Positions 3,163 to 44,559 of a stretch of 44,559 nt of DNA are shown here, piece by piece. Source of the stretch: Escherichia phage AAPEc6; the sequence record NC_047769.1. One strand, 5' to 3'. The stretch's first letter is position 1. Every line of letters starts with the position of its first letter. Below the pieces are notes generated by a model. That model saw only the letters and a list, made by a program, of their open reading frames with translations. It was not told the origin of the DNA and searched no databases. The position numbers and the translations under genes are program-made.

Positions 3163-5790
3163 ATGCAAGACCTACACGCTATTCAACTTCAACTTGAAGA
3201 AGAAATGTTTAACGGCGGTATCCGTCGCTTTGAAGCGGACCAACAACGCCAGATTGCATCCGGTAATGAATCAGACACGGCATGGAATCGCCGCTTATTG
3301 TCCGAGTTAATCGCGCCAATGGCTGAAGGTATTCAGGCATACAAGGAAGAGTATGAAGGTAAAAGAGGCCGTGCACCGCGTGCATTAGCTTTCATTAACT
3401 GCGTAGAAAACGAAGTGGCAGCATATATCACGATGAAAATCGTTATGGATATGCTGAACACGGATGTAACCTTGCAGGCTATAGCCATGAATGTAGCTGA
3501 CCGCATTGAGGACCAAGTACGTTTTAGCAAGCTGGAAGGTCACGCCGCCAAATACTTTGAAAAAGTTAAGAAGTCACTTAAGGCAAGTAAGACTAAATCA
3601 TATCGCCATGCGCACAATGTAGCGGTAGTGGCTGAAAAGTCTGTCGCTGACCGTGATGCGGACTTCTCCCGCTGGGAGGCATGGCCTAAAGATACCTTGT
3701 TGCAAATAGGCATGACCTTGCTAGAAATCTTGGAGAATAGCGTATTCTTCAACGGGCAACCTGTTTTCCTTCGTACCTTGCGCACTAACGGCGGCAAGCA
3801 TGGCGTTTACTACTTACAGACTAGCGAACACGTGGGTGAATGGATAACTGCATTTAAAGAGCACGTAGCTCAGCTGAGTCCAGCCTATGCACCTTGCGTT
3901 ATTCCTCCGCGTCCGTGGGTTTCTCCGTTTAATGGTGGCTTTCACACCGAGAAGGTGGCAAGTCGCATCCGTCTAGTAAAAGGTAACCGCGAGCACGTCC
4001 GCAAGCTGACTAAAAAGCAAATGCCAGCGGTTTATAAGGCTGTTAATGCATTGCAAGCCACTAAATGGCAGGTTAACAAGGAAGTGTTGCAGGTAGTAGA
4101 AGATGTTATTCGTCTAGACCTCGGTTATGGTGTACCTTCCTTTAAGCCGCTCATTGACCGCGAGAACAAACCAGCTAACCCTGTTCCTCTTGAGTTCCAA
4201 CACCTGCGAGGCCGTGAACTGAAAGAGATGCTTACGCCAGAACAGTGGCAAGCTTTTATAAACTGGAAAGGAGAATGTACCAAGCTGTATACCGCTGAAA
4301 CTAAGCGCGGAAGCAAGTCGGCGGCAACCGTTCGCATGGTTGGACAGGCCCGTAAATACAGCCAGTTTGACGCAATTTATTTTGTGTATGCACTGGACAG
4401 CCGCAGCCGTGTATACGCGCAATCTAGCACGCTCTCGCCGCAATCAAATGACTTAGGCAAGGCATTGCTCCGTTTTACCGAAGGGCAGCGTCTTGATAGC
4501 GCTGAGGCGCTTAAGTGGTTTTTGGTGAACGGGGCGAATAACTGGGGTTGGGATAAGAAAACTTTTGACGTGCGCACCGCTAACGTGCTGGACGGCGAGT
4601 TTCAAGACATGTGCCGCGACATTGCAGCCGACCCGCTGACCTTCACTCAATGGGTAAATGCCGACTCCCCTTACGGCTTCCTTGCATGGTGCTTTGAATA
4701 TGCGCGTTATCTTGATGCACTGGATGAAGGCACGCAAGACCAATTCATGACGCACCTCCCAGTCCATCAAGATGGTAGTTGTTCTGGTATACAGCACTAC
4801 AGTGCTATGCTACGCGATGCAGTAGGTGCGAAAGCAGTAAACCTTAAGCCCTCTGACTCTCCTCAAGATATTTATGGTGCCGTTGCGCAGGTAGTAATTC
4901 AGAAGAATTATGCATACATGAATGCAGAGGCTGCGGAAACCTTCACTTCTGGCAGCGTGACTTTAACAGGTGCGGAACTGCGTAGTATGGCTAGTGCGTG
5001 GGATATGATAGGAATCACTCGCGGCCTAACCAAAAAGCCCGTAATGACACTACCTTATGGCAGCACACGTCTAACCTGCCGTGAGTCAGTGATTGATTAT
5101 ATCGTTGATTTAGAAGAAAAAGAGGCCCAACGGGCTATTGCGGAAGGGCGTACCGCCAATCCTGTACACCCTTTTGATAATGACCGTAAAGACAGCCTTA
5201 CACCTAGCGCAGCTTATAACTATATGACAGCTTTAATCTGGCCTTCTATTTCGGAAGTGGTTAAAGCTCCTATAGTGGCAATGAAAATGATTCGTCAGCT
5301 TGCCCGTTTCGCAGCTAAAAGGAATGAAGGCCTAGAGTATACCCTGCCTACTGGCTTCATCTTGCAACAAAAGATTATGGCTACTGATATGCTCCGCGTA
5401 TCTACTTGCTTGATGGGAGAAATCAAGATGAGTCTACAGATTGAAACAGACGTAGTGGATGAAACGGCAATGATGGGCGCTGCTGCTCCTAACTTTGTGC
5501 ATGGTCATGATGCCAGCCACCTTATCTTAACAGTCTGCGACCTTGTTGATAAAGGGATTACATCTATCGCAGTTATTCATGACTCTTTTGGCACTCATGC
5601 AGGCCGTACAGCCGACCTTCGTGATAGCTTAAGGGCAGAAATGGTGAAGATGTATCAAGGCCGTAATGCGCTGCAAAGCCTGCTAGATGAGCACGAAGAA
5701 CGCTGGTTAGTTGATACCGGAATACAAGTACCAGAGCAAGGGGAGTTTGACCTTAACGAAATCTTAGTTTCAGACTATTGCTTCGCATAA
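3163..5790 (+). CDS. Single-subunit DNA-directed RNA polymerase (T7 gene 1 family)
   Basis: 875 aa; motifs [29 protein letters not shown] and C-terminal ...DYCFA match T7/SP6-type RNAPs; AGGAG RBS. Confidence 0.97.
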
Positions 5791-5863
5791 TATTAATAGG
5801 CCATTCCTTCGGGAGTGGCCTTTCTTTTACCTACTACCTGTAACATTTCATTAACATAAAAGT

Positions 5864-5879
5864 GTCTCACATGTGAGAC
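5864..5879 (+). repeat. 16-bp perfect palindrome GTCTCACATGTGAGAC (copy 1), just upstream of a promoter
   Basis: Read directly; identical to the copies at 6045, 8256 and 30670. Confidence 0.9.
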
Positions 5880-5881
5880 TT

Positions 5882-5903
5882 ATTTACCGGACACTATAGG
5901 ATA
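5882..5903 (+). promoter_or_regulatory. Phage RNAP promoter (ATTTACCGGACACTATAGGATA)
   Basis: Matches the window consensus ATTTACTGGACACTATAGAAG at most positions. Confidence 0.6.
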
Positions 5904-5940
5904 ACCGTCGGAGACGGGAAAGAAAGGGAAGATAAAGGAT

Positions 5941-6000
5941 ATAAAGGAAGTAATAGGTATTAAAGGTTATATAGGTTATCTAGGAATACCTATTACCTTC
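5941..6000 (+). other. AT-rich block with phased TAGGT(A/T)A repeats and an 11-bp inverted repeat (GTAATAGGTAT ... ATACCTATTAC); candidate replication origin or RNase III site
   Basis: Inverted repeat read directly (5950-5960 pairs with 5986-5996); position between RNAP and gene 1.1 with two flanking promoters mirrors the T7 primary origin. Confidence 0.45.
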
Positions 6001-6044
6001 TTCCTTCCTCTTATTACCACTCAGAGGAAGGGCAGACCTAGGTT

Positions 6045-6060
6045 GTCTCACATGTGAGAC
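6045..6060 (+). repeat. 16-bp palindrome GTCTCACATGTGAGAC (copy 2)
   Basis: Read directly. Confidence 0.9.
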
Positions 6061-6065
6061 TTCGT

Positions 6066-6088
6066 ATTTACCGGACAGTATAGATAAG
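6066..6088 (+). promoter_or_regulatory. Variant phage promoter (ATTTACCGGACAGTATAGATAAG)
   Basis: Consensus-like with CAGTATAGA replacing CACTATAGA. Confidence 0.45.
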
Positions 6089-6113
6089 ATTAACTCACTT
6101 TGGAGATTTAACC

Positions 6114-6242
6114 ATGCGCAACTTTGAGAAGATGGCCCGTAAAGCTAACCGTTTTGACATGGAAGAGGGGCAGAAGAAAGGCAAGAAGCTGAATAAGCCT
6201 GTCCGTGACCGTGCATCTAAACGCGCTGCGTGGGAGTTCTAA
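6114..6242 (+). CDS. Gene 1.1-like small basic protein (42 aa)
   Basis: Translation MRNFEKMARKANRFDMEEGQKKGKKLNKPVRDRASKRAAWEF resembles T7 gp1.1 (MRNFEKM...KLNK..RDR..KR..WE) as remembered; GGAG RBS; below the ORF-track cutoff. Confidence 0.7.
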   Translation: MRNFEKMARKANRFDMEEGQKKGKKLNKPVRDRASKRAAWEF

Positions 6243-6245
6243 GTT

Positions 6246-8234
6246 ATGGCTATTATTCAGAATGTACCGTGTCCTGCCTGTCAAAAGAATGGACATGATA
6301 TTACTGGCAACCATCTCATGATATTTGATGATGGTGCTGGCTACTGTAATCGTGGACACTTTCATGATAATGGTAGACCTTACTATCACAAGCCGGAAGG
6401 TGGCATCGAGATAACCGAGTTACCTATTACTGGCAATATCAAATATACACCTTCTCAATTCAAAGAAATGGAGAAGGAAGGGAAGATAAGCGACCCTAAA
6501 TTACGTGCCATCGCACTAGGTGGTATGCGTATGAAAGACCGTTGGGAGGTCATGAATGAGCAAGAAAGGGCAGACCAAGAAGCAGAGTGGAAACTTGATG
6601 TTGAATGGTTCCTTACGCTTAAGCGTAAGAACCTTGTTTCCCGACACATTCGCGGCGACATTTGCGCATTGTATGATGTACGTGTCGGACACGATGAAGA
6701 GGGTAGAGTCTCGAGGCATTACTATCCACGCTTCGAGAAAGGTGAGCTAGTAGGCGCTAAGTGTCGCACATTACCTAAAGACTTTAAGTTTGGTCATTTA
6801 GGTAAACTCTTTGGTATGCAAGATCTTTTCGGGATGAATACTTTGTCTCACGTGTTAGACAAGGGAAGACGAAAGGATTGCTTGCTTATTGTGGGTGGGG
6901 AACTGGATGCGCTAGCAGCGCAGCAGATGCTCCTTGATTCTGCCAAGGGTACTAAGTGGGAAGGCCAACCTTACCATGTATGGTCTGTTAACAAAGGGGA
7001 GTCTTGCCTTGAAGAGATTGTGCAGAACCGTGAACACATCGCCCAATTCAAGAAGATTATTTGGGGCTTCGATGGGGATGAGGTAGGGCAGAAGCAGAAC
7101 CAGCAAGCGGCTCGCCTGTTTCCTGGCAAATCCTATATCCTTGAGTACCCTTCTGGCTGCAAAGATGCCAACAAGGCATTGATGGCTGGCAAGGCTAAAG
7201 AGTTTGTTGATGCATGGTTTAATGCCAAGCCATCTGATGAAGTCTTTGGTAGCCAGATTAAATCTATCGCATCTCAAAGGGATAAGCTCAAGGCTGCACG
7301 TCCAGAGCAAGGACTATCATGGCCTTGGCCTAAGCTGAACAAGGTAACGCTAGGTATTCGTAAGAACCAGCTTATCATTGTAGGTGCAGGGTCTGGTGTA
7401 GGTAAGACTGAGTTCCTTCGTGAAGTAGTTAAGCACCTCATTGAAGAACACGGTGAATCTGTGGGCATCATTTCTACAGAAGACCCGATGGTCAAGGTGT
7501 CCCGTGCTTTTATCGGCAAGTGGATTGATAAGCGTATTGAGTTACCTCCAACCAACGACCCGAAAGAAGACGGATACCGTGAGGTGTTCGACTATACCGA
7601 GGAAGAAGCTAACGCCGCCATTGATTATGTAGCTGATACAGGTAAGCTGTTTGTAGCTGACCTAGAGGGTGACTATTCGATGGAAAAGGTAGAGCAAACT
7701 TGCCTAGAGTTTGAGGCTATGGGTATTTCTAATATCATCATTGATAACTTAACGGGGATTAAATTAGATGAGCGTGCTTTTGGTGGGAAGGTTGGTGCAC
7801 TTGATGAATGCGTCAAGCGGATTGGTACTATCAAAGACCGACACCCGGTTACTATATTCCTTGTATCACACCTTACACGTCCTCCGGCAAACCGTACCCA
7901 ACACGAAGAAGGTGGCGAAGTTATCCTTTCTGACTTCCGAGGCTCAGGCGCTATCGGATTCTGGGCATCTTACGCCTTGGGGATTGAGCGTAATACAAGA
8001 GCTGAAACGCTTGACGAAAGGACTACCACGTACATCTCATGTGTCAAAGACCGCGACCAAGGTATCTACACTGGAACCAAGGTCATGCTTAAGGGTGACA
8101 TTCAAACCGGACGTTTAATGGAACCACAAGCCCGTACTAAGTCATTTGATACAGGTGAAGCAAGGCAACAAGAAGTACCAGATTTACCGGACACTATAGA
8201 AGAGACTAACTTCGATGAAGAAAGTGAGTTCTGA
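6246..8234 (+). CDS. DNA primase/helicase (T7 gp4-like)
   Basis: 662 aa; N-terminal zinc ribbon (CPAC...C..GHFH), Walker A GAGSGVGKT, acidic C-terminus ending ...FDEESEF. Confidence 0.95.
   Translation: MAIIQNVPCPACQKNGHDITGNHLMIFDDGAGYCNRGHFHDNGRPYYHKPEGGIEITELPITGNIKYTPSQFKEMEKEGKISDPKLRAIALGGMRMKDRWEVMNEQERADQEAEWKLDVEWFLTLKRKNLVSRHIRGDICALYDVRVGHDEEGRVSRHYYPRFEKGELVGAKCRTLPKDFKFGHLGKLFGMQDLFGMNTLSHVLDKGRRKDCLLIVGGELDALAAQQMLLDSAKGTKWEGQPYHVWSVNKGESCLEEIVQNREHIAQFKKIIWGFDGDEVGQKQNQQAARLFPGKSYILEYPSGCKDANKALMAGKAKEFVDAWFNAKPSDEVFGSQIKSIASQRDKLKAARPEQGLSWPWPKLNKVTLGIRKNQLIIVGAGSGVGKTEFLREVVKHLIEEHGESVGIISTEDPMVKVSRAFIGKWIDKRIELPPTNDPKEDGYREVFDYTEEEANAAIDYVADTGKLFVADLEGDYSMEKVEQTCLEFEAMGISNIIIDNLTGIKLDERAFGGKVGALDECVKRIGTIKDRHPVTIFLVSHLTRPPANRTQHEEGGEVILSDFRGSGAIGFWASYALGIERNTRAETLDERTTTYISCVKDRDQGIYTGTKVMLKGDIQTGRLMEPQARTKSFDTGEARQQEVPDLPDTIEETNFDEESEF
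6845..6860 (+). repeat. Palindrome variant GTCTCACGTGTTAGAC inside the primase-helicase CDS
   Basis: Read directly; one mismatch from the perfect palindrome. Confidence 0.6.
8182..8204 (+). promoter_or_regulatory. Phage promoter (ATTTACCGGACACTATAGAAGAG) embedded in the helicase C-terminal codons
   Basis: Near-consensus; encodes ...DLPDTIEET... Confidence 0.6.
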
Positions 8235-8255
8235 TTAGTGTATTTATCAGGGCTT

Positions 8256-8271
8256 GTCTCACATGTGAGAC
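8256..8271 (+). repeat. 16-bp palindrome (copy 3) with conserved flanks ggcttGTCTCACATGTGAGACagg, downstream of the helicase
   Basis: Read directly; followed by a T-rich stretch, hairpin/terminator-like. Confidence 0.9.
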
Positions 8272-8310
8272 AGGCTCTTATTAAGTACATTAAATAACTG
8301 GAGATTGATT

Positions 8311-9213: not shown

Positions 9214-9390
9214 ATGCAGAATAAACATAGTCTTAAAATGTTCGATGGTCATGAAGACCTGCAAGCCAAGATTACTAACCAAGCCTTCCTGTTCGCTCAG
9301 GTAACTATGGCTGAGGCCAAGAAGAATAGTCTCACTCGTGAACAGGTTATCAAGGAAAGTGAAGTGAAACGTAAGATTCGCAGTCGATAA
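9214..9390 (+). CDS. Small ORF (58 aa, basic C-terminus)
   Basis: ATG at 9214; ends just before the palindrome at 9401. Confidence 0.3.
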   Translation: MQNKHSLKMFDGHEDLQAKITNQAFLFAQVTMAEAKKNSLTREQVIKESEVKRKIRSR

Positions 9391-9400
9391 GTCAAGGGTT

Positions 9401-9416
9401 GTCTCACGTGTGAGAC
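9401..9416 (+). repeat. 16-bp palindrome GTCTCACGTGTGAGAC (copy 4, CACGTG core)
   Basis: Read directly; flanks gggtt...cagcc extend the inverted repeat. Confidence 0.9.
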
Positions 9417-9541
9417 AGCCTTTCATCATATTGATTGGAGGTGCATTATGCCACGTGATTATGATTCTGATTGGGACTATTATGACTCAATGAATCCAAA
9501 ACCCGAACGTTCAGATGATTACTACGAAACAGAGGCAATGT

Positions 9542-12302: not shown

Positions 12303-12370
12303 GTTATACTCAAGGTCACTTACGAGTGGCCTTTATGAATAACTTATTCCTACTTATTTTGTCTAACATG

Positions 12371-12393
12371 ATTTACTGGACACTATAGAAGGA
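12371..12393 (+). promoter_or_regulatory. Phage promoter (ATTTACTGGACACTATAGAAGGA)
   Basis: Exact consensus; preceded by GTCTAACATG, a palindrome half-site relic. Confidence 0.8.
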
Positions 12394-12450
12394 AAGCATA
12401 GGTAATCTAGGTTTATAAGGTAGTATAGGTAATTAAGTAAATATAGGAGA
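12394..12450 (+). other. AT-rich leader with phased ATAGGTAAT-type repeats
   Basis: ATAGGTAAT appears twice plus CTAGGTTTA and AAGGTAGTA at about 10-bp spacing. Confidence 0.4.
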
Positions 12451-12457
12451 TATAAAT

Positions 12458-12835
12458 ATGTCTATGGTAACTACTCTGGTATTCGTGGCTCAATACTTTC
12501 GTGGTCTTGCTAATAAGTTCAAGTCCAAGGCTATCAAAGCTATTGAGGCTCGCATCGAAGCAGTACAGGCAGAGCAAGTTAAAGTTGAAGAACATCGTAG
12601 TTCTCAAATGATTGACTGTCATAACCGCTACTATGCATCTCGTGATGAACTAAATGCACGTCAAGTCAAAGAGGTAGAAGATATGCTGGCACGTCACCAG
12701 CAAGAGCGTGACAGCCTGAAAGCTGAATTTGAAGAGAACAAGGCATCAATTGCTCTTGTACATCAAGCTGCATCTGACAGTCTGAAGAAAGAGATTGTTA
12801 TGCTGGAAATCGAACTGGATAACCTGACCAAATAA
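12458..12835 (+). CDS. Hypothetical protein (125 aa; N-terminal hydrophobic segment then coiled coil)
   Basis: ORF track; AGGAGA RBS. Confidence 0.55.
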   Translation: MSMVTTLVFVAQYFRGLANKFKSKAIKAIEARIEAVQAEQVKVEEHRSSQMIDCHNRYYASRDELNARQVKEVEDMLARHQQERDSLKAEFEENKASIALVHQAASDSLKKEIVMLEIELDNLTK

Positions 12836-14358: not shown

Positions 14359-14730
14359 ATGTTCAAGATTGAAACTATCGTAAACCGTGTTGTTAAAGGT
14401 GCTGCTCTGGTATCCGTTGAGTCTTTCATTATCGTCGATGAAGCTGATCAACTGGTAGCTGGTACTAAGGCTTACGATACCCGTGAAGAAGCTCAGGCTA
14501 AGATTGACAGCATGGGTAACTTCGCTGCTGGTCTGGAGTTTGCTCGTGCTTGCTTCCCTGAGCAGGCTGACAAAGCCCAGATCGGTAAGGCTAACATCGT
14601 AGCTGAATATCTAGATTGGATTGCTGCTGGTAAACCAGTGAAAGAAGTTAAGGCTGCTGAAGAAGCTGAATCTACGGCAGTAGAAGTGTCTGCACCGGAA
14701 GCTCCGGTTAGCGAAGAGGAAGAGTTTTGA
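14359..14730 (+). CDS. Small acidic protein with SSB-like C-terminal tail (...SEEEEF), 123 aa
   Basis: Consensus promoter upstream, AAAAGGAGA RBS, terminator downstream; helix-prone composition; tail resembles SSB or gp2.5 C-terminal tails. Confidence 0.6.
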   Translation: MFKIETIVNRVVKGAALVSVESFIIVDEADQLVAGTKAYDTREEAQAKIDSMGNFAAGLEFARACFPEQADKAQIGKANIVAEYLDWIAAGKPVKEVKAAEEAESTAVEVSAPEAPVSEEEEF

Positions 14731-27704: not shown

Positions 27705-30652
27705 TGGCAATTGAGCGACAAGCAGTACAAGGTCTGCCACAAGTGCAGGCCACTTCTCCTAATGTCATGACCTTTGCACCTCAGCGAGTTGGAGGTGTGG
27801 AGGCTGGCGTAGCTTCTACCTCCGGTAGTCGATTTATCGAAGACCTTATTCGAGCAGCCAGTAGTGTAGCTGATGTAACCACTGGTATCCTTAATCAAAA
27901 GATTGAGGAAGATAAGGTTGTTCAAATGGAACGGGCATATAACGGATTAATGCCTTCTGAGGATGCAACTCGTGGTGGCGCTCGTGCTAACATGCTTGTC
28001 AAAGCTCAACTGCTAGCTAATGATGAAGCAGCACGAATGAAAGACATGGCTACTCGTTTCCAAGGAACGGATGACGAGTGGACACAACTTATGGTTGACT
28101 CTCGTAATGAGATGCAGAATAAGCTGTTCCAGCAATACCCTGAGTTGCAAGGTGACAAAGATACTATGCGTATGGTCACTAATGTCTTCCAAGAACAGCA
28201 GCCTCAGATTTGGGCTACACGAACCCAGCATAAACTTGACCGTGAACAAGCAGACCGTGAGGATACCTTTGACGGGCGAGTGGCTTCTACTTGGGATTCT
28301 AATATTGACCCTGAAGCCTCTGGCTATGCTTTACAGGAACGAATCCGCGAAGGTCTTACTCAAGGATTACTACCTGAACAGATGCACAAGAAGTTAGTCC
28401 AGCGAGCAATTTCACTTGCACAAGGAGGTGATGTTAGCATGGCTGAAGCCCTGAAGTATGTGAAGGACGATAAGGGTGTTTCTGTTTATGCTAAGAATCC
28501 ACAGCTTATCACAGCCATCACTAGTGGTAACGCAGTTTGGGCTAGGAATAATGTAGCTGATGTAACTCGTATGTCTTTCGAAGTTAAAGAATCCTACCTT
28601 GCAGGTGATTTAACTGATGAAGAATTGTTGGAACGAGCACAGCACATTAATAATCTGACAGGTAACTCTGTCTTCTCTAATCCAGAACTAGAGGCACTGA
28701 TGCGCCAACGGGCTAAGCAGAATGCAGAGCTAGGTGCAATGCAGGATATGCGACGTGAGCTTTACTCCGATCGCCTGACTGGCTTCCAAGGTAAGACTGA
28801 CAAAGAGAAGAAGGCTTACATTGATGTTATCAAACAGGATAGCCAACTTTATGCAGACCAGCAAATCAAACAACGTGGCTTGGACCCTTACAGTCAAGAG
28901 GCTGAAGCTATTCGTGGTGCAGTGGAAGTGCAGCGCCTGCAATTCATGAACTCCAAAGGCTTAGTGGATGATACCTTTGAGTCTCGTATCAAAGCCATGG
29001 AATCTATGCTATCGCCTGAGCACTTTGCCAAGGGCGAACCACAGGAGTTGATGACTATTCGCCAGTTGTGGGAACAGTTACCAGAAGAGAGCCGAGGTGT
29101 CTTTGGTGACACGGTGAATGGCTATATGGATAACTACAACACTGCACTACAAATGGGAGAGACACCTTTGCAGGCTGCAAGGTTTGCGCGTGAAGCACAG
29201 CAGAAATTCTCTCGTACTGAGAAGGAAACCAAGAAGTTCAACTCAGCTATTGGAGATGCACTGGATGAGGTATCTGGTGCTGGCTGGTTTGATGGTAAAA
29301 CCGAAGTGTCAGACTTAGGTAAAGCTATTGCGGAAGAAGAGTTACGAGCTAAGGCCAATATGTTGTGGTCTAGTGGTATGCGTAACATGGATTCCATCAA
29401 GAAGGCTTTAATTACTTGGGGCAATAAACGCTACACTCAATCAGAGGATGCAAAGACTTCCGGTGGCTATTTCATTAAAGGTGATTACACTTCTGCATCT
29501 GATATGCTTATGTCAGTTGGGAAAGGCGTAAACCCTACCGATGTACCTCTGGCGCTTGGTAGGTATGTAGAAACACAGATGCCAGAATTGAAGAAGGAGC
29601 TTCAAGAGTGGGAAACTAAAGATGATATATACATTGATTACAATGAACAGAAAGGAACTTTTGTGATTCGTGCTGGTGCAGCAGGTCGCCCTCTTTCTGG
29701 AGTAATCCCTGTAACCTCTTTAGATACTACTTCACTACTAGATTCTGCCTATCAGAAGAAAGTAGAGAAACGAGATAAAGGCGAGTATGTTCACCCGTAC
29801 CGTACAGATATTGGTGCACAAGAGCCTATGCCAGCTAAACCAACTGCCAAAGATATTGGTAAATTTGGACTAGCTAACTTCCTCATGTCTTCTGCTTTTG
29901 CTTCTGGTGAGAATCTGCCTTCTAACTTCGAGATTAACTATCGAGGTAATATGCAACAATTCTATGACAAGCTAGCTATGGATGAGAATAAAGATAAAGT
30001 TGGCTTTAATAGGGCAACTGGAACCTTTACTCCATATAAAGACGCTCGCGGTGAGTCTATCGGTTACGGTCATTTCTTAACGGAAGAAGAGAAGCGAAAC
30101 GGGTATATTAAGATTGGTGATGAACTAGTTCCCTATCGAGGGTCTATGTCTCAGCTTACAGAGAGCAAGGCTCGCGCTCTTATGGAGCAAGATGCTAAGA
30201 AGCATGTGCCTCCTACTCGTGACTGGAAGATTCCGTTTGACCAGATGCATCCTGCACAGCAACGTGGCTTGATGGATTTAACCTACAATTTAGGTAAAGG
30301 TGGAATCCAGAACTCACCGCGTGCTCTTGCTGCATTCAAAGCTGGTAAGCTTACGGAAGGCTTTATCGAAATGCTGGGCACTGCATCAAGTGAAGGTAAG
30401 CGTATTCCTGGCCTACTGAAGCGACGCGCTGAGGCATACAATATGGCATCTGCTGGTGGTGTGCCTAAGATTACCGAAGTGGAGACTCGTGAAGATGGCT
30501 CCATGTGGGTTAGGTTTGGTGGACCTATGCCAGCAGGTTCTGTCTCGGCATGGACTCATAAACGTATTGGCGCGGATGGTTGGTATCAGGTTTATGAGGC
30601 TGCACCTACCAAGTTAGCTAAAGGTTCTAAGGTAGGTAAAGTTAAGTTGTAG
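27704..30652 (+). CDS. Internal virion protein with T4-lysozyme-like (GH24) domain near the C-terminus
   Basis: Segment PYKDARGESIGYGHFL parallels T4 lysozyme IYKDTEGYYTIGIGHLL. Confidence 0.8.
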   Translation: MAIERQAVQGLPQVQATSPNVMTFAPQRVGGVEAGVASTSGSRFIEDLIRAASSVADVTTGILNQKIEEDKVVQMERAYNGLMPSEDATRGGARANMLVKAQLLANDEAARMKDMATRFQGTDDEWTQLMVDSRNEMQNKLFQQYPELQGDKDTMRMVTNVFQEQQPQIWATRTQHKLDREQADREDTFDGRVASTWDSNIDPEASGYALQERIREGLTQGLLPEQMHKKLVQRAISLAQGGDVSMAEALKYVKDDKGVSVYAKNPQLITAITSGNAVWARNNVADVTRMSFEVKESYLAGDLTDEELLERAQHINNLTGNSVFSNPELEALMRQRAKQNAELGAMQDMRRELYSDRLTGFQGKTDKEKKAYIDVIKQDSQLYADQQIKQRGLDPYSQEAEAIRGAVEVQRLQFMNSKGLVDDTFESRIKAMESMLSPEHFAKGEPQELMTIRQLWEQLPEESRGVFGDTVNGYMDNYNTALQMGETPLQAARFAREAQQKFSRTEKETKKFNSAIGDALDEVSGAGWFDGKTEVSDLGKAIAEEELRAKANMLWSSGMRNMDSIKKALITWGNKRYTQSEDAKTSGGYFIKGDYTSASDMLMSVGKGVNPTDVPLALGRYVETQMPELKKELQEWETKDDIYIDYNEQKGTFVIRAGAAGRPLSGVIPVTSLDTTSLLDSAYQKKVEKRDKGEYVHPYRTDIGAQEPMPAKPTAKDIGKFGLANFLMSSAFASGENLPSNFEINYRGNMQQFYDKLAMDENKDKVGFNRATGTFTPYKDARGESIGYGHFLTEEEKRNGYIKIGDELVPYRGSMSQLTESKARALMEQDAKKHVPPTRDWKIPFDQMHPAQQRGLMDLTYNLGKGGIQNSPRALAAFKAGKLTEGFIEMLGTASSEGKRIPGLLKRRAEAYNMASAGGVPKITEVETREDGSMWVRFGGPMPAGSVSAWTHKRIGADGWYQVYEAAPTKLAKGSKVGKVKL

Positions 30653-30669
30653 TACCTAACTCAAGGCTT

Positions 30670-30685
30670 GTCTCACATGTGAGAC
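30670..30685 (+). repeat. 16-bp palindrome (copy 6) with the same 24-bp context as copy 3 (ggcttGTCTCACATGTGAGACagg)
   Basis: Read directly; lies between two internal virion protein genes. Confidence 0.9.
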
Positions 30686-30716
30686 AGGTCTTTATGATAG
30701 GCACTATGGAGGAATT

Positions 30717-37839: not shown

Positions 37840-37885
37840 AGAGAAATAATAGGTAATATAGGTTAACCTAGGTTATATAGGTATG
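37840..37885 (+). other. AT-rich block of four phased TAGGT(A/T)A repeats; candidate secondary origin or regulatory site
   Basis: ATAGGTAAT, ATAGGTTAA, CTAGGTTAT, ATAGGTATG at about 9-10 bp spacing; followed by hairpin GGGTGTAC-TCCT-GTACACCC (37895-37914). Confidence 0.4.
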
Positions 37886-44119: not shown

Positions 44120-44559
44120 AGGTTAATATCTTAGTGTACACAAGGGCAGACCTAGGTTTGCTCTTAGTGTATTTACAATGGAGGTCTTATGTATATACCT
44201 ATGGAAGCAATAGTAGGTGGCCTATGCTTGTTGATAGGTTTCGTTATAGGCTTAATAGCAAATCCTTAGTCCTGTACAAGGATTAACCAAAGTCAAAATT
44301 TTGATATAGGCGTGTGTCAGCTCTCTCGCCCTCGCCCTCGCCGGGTTGTCCCCATAGGGTGGCCTGAGGGAATCCGTCTTCGACGGGCAGGGCTGAGGTA
44401 CTCATTGGCTAGTACAAGGGAGGCGGAGGGAACGCCTAGGGAGGCCTAGGAATGGCTTAGTGGTGGACAAGGTGATTACCTTAGTGAAGCCTCTTAGTGC
44501 ATTCCTGAGGCCATTCAGGGCGTTTATGAGGGATTGACAGGGTGGGCGTGGGTGGGCTA
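44120..44559 (+). repeat. Right-terminal region: CTTAGTG repeats (about 6 copies) flanking a GC-rich block (44310-44450)
   Basis: Same heptamer family as at the left end; local GC-rich stretch with CCCTCG repeats is atypical for this genome. Confidence 0.55.
44189..44269 (+). CDS. Hydrophobic miniprotein (26 aa, single predicted TM)
   Basis: GGAGG 4 nt upstream of the ATG; MYIPMEAIVGGLCLLIGFVIGLIANP. Confidence 0.25.
   Translation: MYIPMEAIVGGLCLLIGFVIGLIANP

Follow-up and report, generated by a model that had tools for sequence, protein, structure and literature searches.

Replication of bacteriophage T7 starts at the primary origins phi1.1A and phi1.1B, the secondary origins phiOR and phi6.5 are usable if the primary ones are deleted, and every T7 origin depends on a T7 promoter as one of its components (PMC8373140). 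The origin lies at 14.75-15% of the T7 genome and requires T7 RNA polymerase, and nascent DNA bears 10-60 nucleotides (nt) of RNA from the origin promoters (bioRxiv 10.1101/2024.10.01.616023). Both primary promoters, phi1.1A (5848) and phi1.1B (5923), are located in the gap between gene 1 and gene 1.1. The subject of this paper is the equivalent gap in Escherichia phage AAPEc6 (NC_047769.1), between the RNA polymerase gene and a homolog of gene 1.1; the whole 44,559-nt sequence analysed is referred to as the window, and positions are those of the window. Over bases 5700-6300 the sequence agrees at 99.8% identity with that of Escherichia phage K1-5 (AY370674; Autographiviridae, Molineuxvirinae, Vectrevirus), whose GenBank record leaves the gap without any annotation. 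An earlier note had proposed an origin-like module here, consisting of two promoters, each preceded by a 16-bp palindrome, around an AT-rich segment with repeats. Judged by its sequence, this stretch corresponds, in the SP6/K1-5 group, to the control region between gene 1 and gene 1.1 of T7, and is a real and selected element. The most likely reading, which we put forward tentatively, is that it would act both as a transcription-primed origin of the T7 type and as an mRNA leader.

Architecture of the Gap

The gene context agrees with the position claimed in the earlier note, that of the T7 primary origin, with the RNA polymerase gene upstream and the gp1.1 homolog downstream (Table 1). The similarity of the latter to T7 gp1.1 extends over its whole length (E 6e-12); the gene is labelled '8' in the K1-5 record and its ortholog 'gp1.1' in the SP6 RefSeq record. 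The upstream promoter, P1, lies at 13.2% of the window length, so that the gene gap is the same as in T7 and the fraction of the genome length similar. As in T7, there are two tandem phage promoters with no credible open reading frame (ORF) between them; a hidden ORF was considered and rejected, since the only candidates in the gap are 21-29 aa long and not conserved.

The two promoter-like sequences reported at 5882 and 6066 are exact matches to the phage promoter consensus, which is matched 12 times in the whole window, always on the + strand, where 0.06 matches are expected. Relative to the consensus, P2 has G for C at -5. The sequences of P1 and P2 change in step lineage by lineage (...GTGTTGCACTATAG, ...AAAGACCACTATAG, ...GTGGCGAGTATAG), which is the behaviour expected of real promoters with a co-evolving polymerase. 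In most of the 16 lineages compared (see below) P2 differs from its own P1 within or just upstream of -5 to -1, for example ACAGTATAG here and CACTATTG in the SP6 group, an exception being L029, where the two cores are identical. This pattern suggests that P2 is a deliberately different promoter, perhaps weaker or regulated. From its sequence, P2 looks like an ordinary expression promoter.

The segment between the promoters is AT-rich, with 29% GC over 5918-6002 compared with 45% for the genome. Its lowest 70-nt window, starting at 5919, has 27% GC (0.1 percentile of the genome), and the non-template strand of these 70 nt holds 18 G and one C and is 74% purine. The block ranks about eighth among the lowest-GC 80-bp windows of the genome and is therefore not unique. 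It holds a repeat array in which seven AGG fall within 71 nt, where 1.4 are expected, with spacings of 11, 9, 10, 9, 9 and 9 nt; Tandem Repeats Finder (TRF) gives a period of 9. The TAGGT(A/T)A repeats described earlier are thus real as repeats, but that exact sequence occurs once (5972) and the true unit is AGG-centred. CsrA-type GGA sites were rejected by inspection, as GGA is present in four of the seven units here and in only about one of six in SP6. The 11-bp perfect inverted repeat noted between the promoters is also present, and extends to 18-nt arms. Before palindrome 2, the P1 transcript has a non-coding region of 146 nt.

Table 1. Features in and around the gap downstream of the RNA polymerase gene, with their coordinates.
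Feature	Position	Strand	Description
RNA polymerase gene	3163-5790		Upstream of the gap
Terminator-like hairpin and T run	5798-5829	+	Just past the RNA polymerase stop codon; 10-bp stem AGGCCATTCC/GGAGTGGCCT, loop TTCG
Conserved spacer	5824-5863	+	CTTTTACCTACTACCTGTAACATTTCATTAACA..., containing TACCTACTACCT; two reverse-orientation repeat units (TACCT)
Palindrome 1	5864-5879		GTCTCACATGTGAGAC, exact; ends 2 nt before P1
Phage RNA polymerase promoter P1	5882-5899	+	ATTTACCGGACACTATAG; exact 18-nt consensus match; +1 = G5899
5' stem-loop	5905-5917	+	CCGUC-GGA-GACGG (5 bp); +7 of the P1 transcript
AGG-centred array	5925-5984	+	Seven 9-11-nt repeats; AT-rich, nearly C-free non-template strand; GC skew +1.0
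Dyad	5944-6002		18-nt arms 5944-5961 and 5985-6002 (89% complementary), 23-nt centre
Perfect 11-bp inverted repeat	5951-5961, 5985-5995		TAATAGGTATT (5951-5961), AATACCTATTA (5985-5995)
CCT-rich arm	5985-6011	+	AATACCTATTACCTTCTTCCTTCCTCT; mirrors the array in reverse orientation; alignable to the CCT arm in the leader of P37803
Hairpin 3	6003-6031	+	CCTTCCTCT/AGAGGAAGG, 9 bp; from inverted-repeat search and folds
Palindrome 2	6045-6060		GTCTCACATGTGAGAC, exact; ends 5 nt before P2
Phage promoter P2	6066-6083	+	ATTTACCGGACAGTATAG; consensus match; +1 = G6083; 30-nt leader
Shine-Dalgarno sequence of the gene 1.1 homolog	6102-6106	+	GGAGA, read off the sequence; TGGAGA kept in most relatives, replaced in some (UAB_Phi78)
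Gene 1.1 homolog	6114-6242	+	42 aa, basic; 54% identity to T7 gp1.1; matches phrog_2490
Primase-helicase gene	6246-8234		Directly after the gene 1.1 homolog

Conservation and Natural Variants

The region matches 101 phage records at 69-100% identity, including SP6-like Salmonella phages and Klebsiella phages. The comparison set consists of 16 lineages, selected with 70-99% identity to the window in the C-terminal region of the RNA polymerase, and all 16 share the same order of elements: terminator, palindrome 1, P1, 5' stem-loop, AGG array, dyad, pyrimidine arm and P2. A 16-mer scan of viral contigs for relatives was set aside, since most of its 97 matching stretches are on contigs of a size out of keeping with an SP6-group genome of ~44 kb and probably are chance matches.

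Of 323 intergenic positions, SP6 and the window agree at 245, compared with 42% of the four-fold degenerate sites in the RNA polymerase gene and 57% of those in the primase-helicase gene. The gap evolves far slower than synonymous sites, implying that the whole of it is under purifying selection. Short inverted repeats and AT-rich intergenic DNA are common, and the folding z of the block is modest in several lineages, as would be expected if the segment were a functionless AT-rich spacer in which repeats and inverted repeat arose by chance. Such a spacer is nevertheless very improbable, being contradicted by the slow evolution of the gap and by an architecture maintained in 16 lineages, and the excess and regular spacing of the AGG units and the number of palindrome copies (given below) are far from chance expectation. 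The spacer proper at 5824-5863, between the terminator-like hairpin and palindrome 1, is nearly invariant in an alignment of K1-5, SP6 and Klebsiella phages; a sigma-70 promoter in this interval was considered and rejected, the scan having matched none.

Relatives that keep the promoters and lose the AT-rich block had been named beforehand as the finding that would speak against an origin. The relatives do not show this pattern: they have a GC content, from the 5' hairpin to palindrome 2 (or to P2 where palindrome 2 is absent), of 30-38% in 15 of the 16 lineages and of 44% in L030. Every lineage has the AGG array, and in L030 the repeat persists although the sequence is not AT-rich; the switch from AGGTA to TACCT gives a dyad in every lineage, its register shifting.

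The gap in relatives is a hot spot for inserted HNH-type ORFs or ORFs of unknown kind. HNH endonuclease genes are inserted after P2 in VEc3 (L037, 613-1029) and UAB_Phi78 (L006, 693 onward), and an ORF is inserted ahead of the terminator in ULINTec4 (L036, 288-572); in all three phages the block from palindrome 1 to P2 is intact. Salmonella phage PST_H2 (L008, 634-1070) is the only relative with an insertion inside the array, an HNH-type ORF after the third array unit that stands in place of hairpin 3, the CCT arm and the distal part of the array.

The P1 Module as a Candidate Replication Origin

A sequence signature was calibrated on T7 as the lowest GC content of any 70-nt window starting no more than 60 nt from the +1 of a promoter. 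In T7 the signature singles out phiOL (20%), phi6.5 (23%), phi1.1B (24%), and phi1.1A and phiOR (both 30%), all within the 0.0-0.5 percentile. Among the T7 promoters, phiOL is also a secondary origin and phi13 a replication promoter. All signature picks but phiOL, that is phi6.5, phi1.1B, phi1.1A and phiOR, are named origins in PMC8373140. In the window the same signature singles out P12371 (24%, 0.0 percentile), P1 (27%, 0.1), P14286 (29%, 0.3) and P37803 (30%, 0.7). P1 with its array thus carries the one sequence signature that could be validated on T7 here, and ranks second in the window. P2, with 40% GC (23rd percentile), has no AT-rich block downstream.

By analogy with T7, P1 and the array may work like a minimal T7 origin, in which AT-rich DNA comes after a phage promoter; in both phages this DNA ranks among the most AT-rich parts of the genome. 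Transcripts from P1 would open the weak duplex and be taken by the phage DNA polymerase as primers for rightward synthesis, and the displaced, purine-rich top strand could offer a loading site for the primase-helicase. The same DNA would also act as an mRNA leader, and P2, with its short ordinary leader, drives gene 1.1 and the primase-helicase gene. Since P2 alone could express the downstream genes, the conserved P1 and array would need a function of their own. There are probably several sites of this kind besides the P1 module, for paralogous arrays accompany P12371 and P37803. These promoters and P14286 resemble the T7 secondary origins and replication promoters (phiOL, phiOR, phi6.5, phi13) in that AT-rich DNA follows the promoter, and P37803 stands directly after the terminase large-subunit gene, which is the position of phiOR in T7.

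The origin interpretation of the earlier note is supported in part: the position, the tandem promoters and the P1 signature hold, while the layout departs from that of T7, the palindromes are not origin parts and other sites look equally origin-like. In T7 the AT-rich DNA follows both promoters and forms the gene 1.1 leader; here it follows P1 only, lying between the promoters, and the sequence past P2 is ordinary. An RNase III site stands between the T7 promoters, whereas here that place is taken by a dyad, two hairpins and an AGG array of period 9. T7 has no flanking 16-bp palindromes, and origin function is demonstrated in T7, whereas at this locus it is proposed from sequence.

Several observations, besides this layout, weigh against an origin at P1. 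By the T7 signature, P12371, P14286 and P37803 look just as much like origins. Conservation bears on the AGG-centred repeat (mostly AGGTA) together with covarying hairpins rather than on mere AT-richness, and the retention of the repeat at 44% GC in L030 points to factor recognition or a role at the RNA level over a plain unwinding element. PST_H2 is a viable isolate, implying that a phage can do without the complete array; the argument is weak, since T7 secondary origins can initiate once the primary ones are deleted (PMC8373140). The palindromes ahead of the two promoters were claimed as parts of the module, and they belong to a genome-wide family of eight that is not specific to this locus. 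By nearest-neighbour energies of hybrid against duplex, the P1 transcript region is among the genome's stretches that most favour the RNA:DNA hybrid (0.2 percentile), whereas the T7 origins do not favour it (phi1.1B is at the 75th percentile) and the T7 AT-rich block has no comparable strand asymmetry or hybrid advantage; the property may be real, but R-loop or hybrid energy was accordingly rejected as a signature of T7-type origins. For SP6 itself, Dobbins et al. are reported to have suggested an origin at gene 14 (PMC4837284), and no replication-initiation mapping for phages of the SP6 group was found in the accessible literature.

Cumulative GC skew was likewise rejected as evidence. Its best breakpoint falls at 5900 in the window and at 6700 in SP6, but the T7 control fails: by the same method the minimum lies at 9537 and the breakpoint at 2100, so that the known origin is missed. 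The shift in skew more probably reflects the transition from early to middle genes. In an origin of the T7 type, leftward synthesis would start from a primase recognition site on the displaced strand. For the SP6 primase the recognised sequence is presumably 5'-GCA-3'; a GCA occurs at 6033-6035 and is not conserved in BP12B or in the Klebsiella phages.

RNA Structure of the P1 Leader

The stretch from P1 to P2 could instead act only at the RNA level, as a structured 5' leader or as a separate RNA, some 160 nt long, that begins with the 5' stem-loop and extends to palindrome 2, tuning the stability, processing or translation of the message for gene 1.1 and the primase-helicase in a manner comparable with T7 R1.1. 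We regard this as possible, though less probable than an origin. Support comes from the 5' stem-loop, whose third pair varies among lineages (G:C, A:U, C:G or U:A), and from hairpin 3, which is kept in relatives with differing sequences (CCTTATAT/ATATAAGG and CCTTCTAT/ATAGAAGG). In addition, the AGG arm can fold onto the CCT arm in every lineage, forming a stem of 12-20 bp, with z from +0.07 (L019) to -5.9, a median near -2 and negative values in 15 of 16 lineages. Two other genes have AGG arrays in their 5' leaders, immediately ahead of the ribosome-binding sites, AGGU and AGGA resemble Shine-Dalgarno sequences, and palindrome 2 with its U-rich tail was flagged as a weak terminator by the terminator scan.

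The consensus structure of 13 sequences tells otherwise for the long stem. RNAalifold retains just the 5' stem-loop, and the long stem changes its register from lineage to lineage. The leaders of P12371 and P37803, although paralogous to that of P1, fold no better than shuffled sequences (z +0.7 and -0.25), and a conserved long AGG/CCT hairpin was rejected on these two grounds. Because paralogous leaders carry the array and do not fold, RNA pairing is not what maintains it, and it is rather the motif as such that seems to be recognised. A scan against Rfam 15 gave no family at the gathering threshold, the best hit being a plant microRNA model on the minus strand with 24 bits against the 73 required. 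Furthermore, P2 renders the P1 leader unnecessary for expression of the downstream genes.

The terminator-like hairpin just past the RNA polymerase gene was found both by the terminator scan and by the inverted-repeat search, is annotated as a terminator in the relative MK373773 and is present in all lineages. Twelve of its 15 positions fit the T7 RNase III-site motif GAGTGGCCTTTATGA, and it shares GAGTGGCCTTT..ACCT with the T7 R1.1 region (z 3.5); despite this, its perfect 10-bp stem and T run appear terminator-like. In T7 itself the motif has seven intergenic matches, which correspond to the R0.3, R0.5, R1.1, R1.3, R4.7, R6.5 and R18.5 sites reportedly described by Dunn and Studier 1983.

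Related Modules Elsewhere in the Genome

TRF places period-9 ATAGGTAAT arrays at only three sites in the window, 5932-5984, 12398-12447 and 37849-37883, each directly downstream of a phage promoter. Likewise, the three windows richest in AGG spaced by 9-10 nt are those just downstream of P1, P12371 and P37803. The leaders of these promoters align as paralogs, with a CCT-rich arm common to two of them, P1 and P37803. SP6 holds the same three modules, the arrays after its promoters at 12542 and 37773 matching those of P12371 and P37803. No such period-9 unit was seen in the AT-rich regions of T7.

The regularity and strong enrichment of the repeats, their occurrence past exactly these three promoters with paralogous leaders, and their retention in L030 despite the loss of AT-richness would also fit a function other than replication, in which the 9-bp AGG repeats, and possibly the palindromes, bind a phage or host factor, either a protein or the 30S subunit through anti-Shine-Dalgarno pairing, that controls the three promoters or their transcripts in timing or strength. 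A reverse period-9 array, ACCTAGCC, with a copy of the palindrome ahead of the early-promoter region 275-340, would agree with this, as would the changes in the palindromes between K1-5 and SP6 described in the next section. We nonetheless consider factor binding as the primary function rather unlikely. The searches yielded no candidate factor, the 9-bp period is out of step with the helical repeat of DNA, and the searches gave no known function for the genes downstream of the arrays. Moreover, the conservation of the array at 12371 is due in part to recent genetic exchange: the leader is 97% identical to SP6, the four-fold sites of the next gene are themselves 86% identical, and the high identity of the leader was therefore rejected as proof of selection.

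A bolder form of the origin hypothesis would make the period-9 AGG arrays a dedicated recognition element of the SP6 group that marks a defined set of replication origins, either read by a phage factor or driving R-loops on the C-free non-template strand. In that case the choice of origin would be sequence-specific, in contrast to the T7 rule of a promoter followed by any AT-rich DNA. We judge this to be distinctly unlikely, more so than factor binding without replication. Short tandem direct repeats beside an AT-rich, meltable stretch with a dyad nearby are also known from the iteron origins of plasmids and of phages such as lambda. The units here, however, are of 9 nt rather than about 17-22 nt, an initiator protein is neither known nor predicted, and the arrays always stand in the sense orientation downstream of a phage promoter and occur in ordinary mRNA leaders as well.

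The neighbourhood of the related modules has features of its own. The P37803 leader contains a covarying GC hairpin, GGGUGUAC/GUACACCC here and GGGAGGUA/UACCUCCC in SP6, in addition to the CCT-rich arm. Genes 12388-12835 and 14359-14730 have four-fold sites 83-86% identical to SP6 and were recently exchanged, with a boundary at P12371; in six other genes compared (polymerases, primase, terminase, capsid, three small genes) the corresponding values are 39-59%. Just upstream of P12371, 12308-12351 is a predicted RNase III site of the canonical T7 type, with an exact GAGTGGCCTTTATGA at 12324, around which 46 nt align to T7 R1.1 (z 11.3). The same interval has no similarity to SP6, so that P12371 marks a mosaic boundary.

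The 16-bp Palindrome Family

The palindrome reported ahead of each promoter is indeed present as exact copies at 5864 and 6045. With up to two mismatches there are eight copies in the window, where 0.00 are expected, starting at 325, 5864, 6045, 6845 (inside the primase-helicase gene), 8256, 9401, 14255 and 30670; the extended consensus is TTGTC...GACAA. SP6 (L009) carries GTC[CT]AAC..GTT[GA]GAC at the eight orthologous positions and at one extra position, its copies being located at 493, 6093, 6264, 7071, 8547, 9383, 14255, 17752 and 30569. In the exact copies both half-sites have changed together, C5/G12 to A5/T12 (SP6 GTC[CT]AAC versus K1-5 GTCTCAC), and the copies at 325 and 6845 retain one SP6-type half-site. 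The retention of eight orthologous positions and these joint changes favour a bound factor. PST_H2, which combines a K1-5-type palindrome 1 with an SP6-type palindrome 2, holds both types in one genome, contrary to a strictly lineage-specific reader. Palindrome 1 is present in all 16 lineages as GTC[CT][AC]AC..GT..GAC, and palindrome 2 is absent from the four most distant lineages (L027-L032). A literature search with the palindrome sequences gave no match.

The copies occur in two contexts. Those at 5864, 6045 and 14255 lie upstream of phage promoters at variable distance and that at 325 upstream of a sigma-70-like early promoter; these four can form only a 6-bp hairpin, and their context folds no better than shuffled sequence (z -0.4 and +0.8 for 5864 and 6045, about 0 for 14255 and 325). 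The copies at 8256, 9401 and 30670 lie 11-22 nt past stop codons and cap bipartite hairpins (8236-8296, 9381-9438 and 30649-30707) in which an internal loop separates the upper stem (13 bp) from the lower one (9-12 bp), with z of -5.4 to -7.7 and compensatory changes relative to SP6. By their predicted folds, the latter three are likely RNA processing or 3'-end stabilising sites. Occurring genome-wide in two contexts, the palindromes cannot be counted as origin-specific parts.

For a purely RNA-level role of the P1-P2 stretch these hairpins cut both ways. The three that are capped by palindromes are RNase III-like, and together with the exact motif at 12324 they resemble the T7 RNase III sites (R0.3, R0.5, R1.1 and others). 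The module's own two palindromes, in contrast, have no extended or lower stem and no bipartite hairpin carrying GAGTGGCCUUUAUGA, and the long AGG/CCT hairpin is built differently from the T7 sites.

Significance

The SP6 group includes the therapy phages K1-5 and K1E and the sources of the SP6 and K1E RNA polymerases. The genome and promoters of K1-5 were reportedly published in 2004. Where replication starts in this group has not been mapped in the literature that we found, and the candidates are now narrowed to a few promoter-plus-array modules with coordinates, the T7 controls serving to sort the sequence arguments that survive from those that fail. If P1 and the array are an origin, they could give a compact replicon that is orthogonal to that of T7 and dependent on an SP6- or K1E-type polymerase; if they are not, the region is still a strongly selected leader. 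The AGG repeat and the palindrome family also provide starting points in the search for new regulatory factors. A parallel with T7 is what one would expect, and Scholl et al. 2004 may have drawn it already; the period-9 AGG modules and a palindrome family that occurs in two contexts were less to be expected.

Other Observations

Two further places in the window have features in common with the P1 region. At 265-340, a reverse period-9 array of three units, AACCTAGCC, is followed by the palindrome at 325 and then by a strong sigma-70-like early promoter (TTGACA..TAATACT), and this order of reverse repeats, palindrome and promoter is shared with the region upstream of P1. Near the right end, 44379-44450 is the most AGG-dense and most RNA:DNA-hybrid-favouring stretch, with a period-10 repeat, AGGGAGGCCT.

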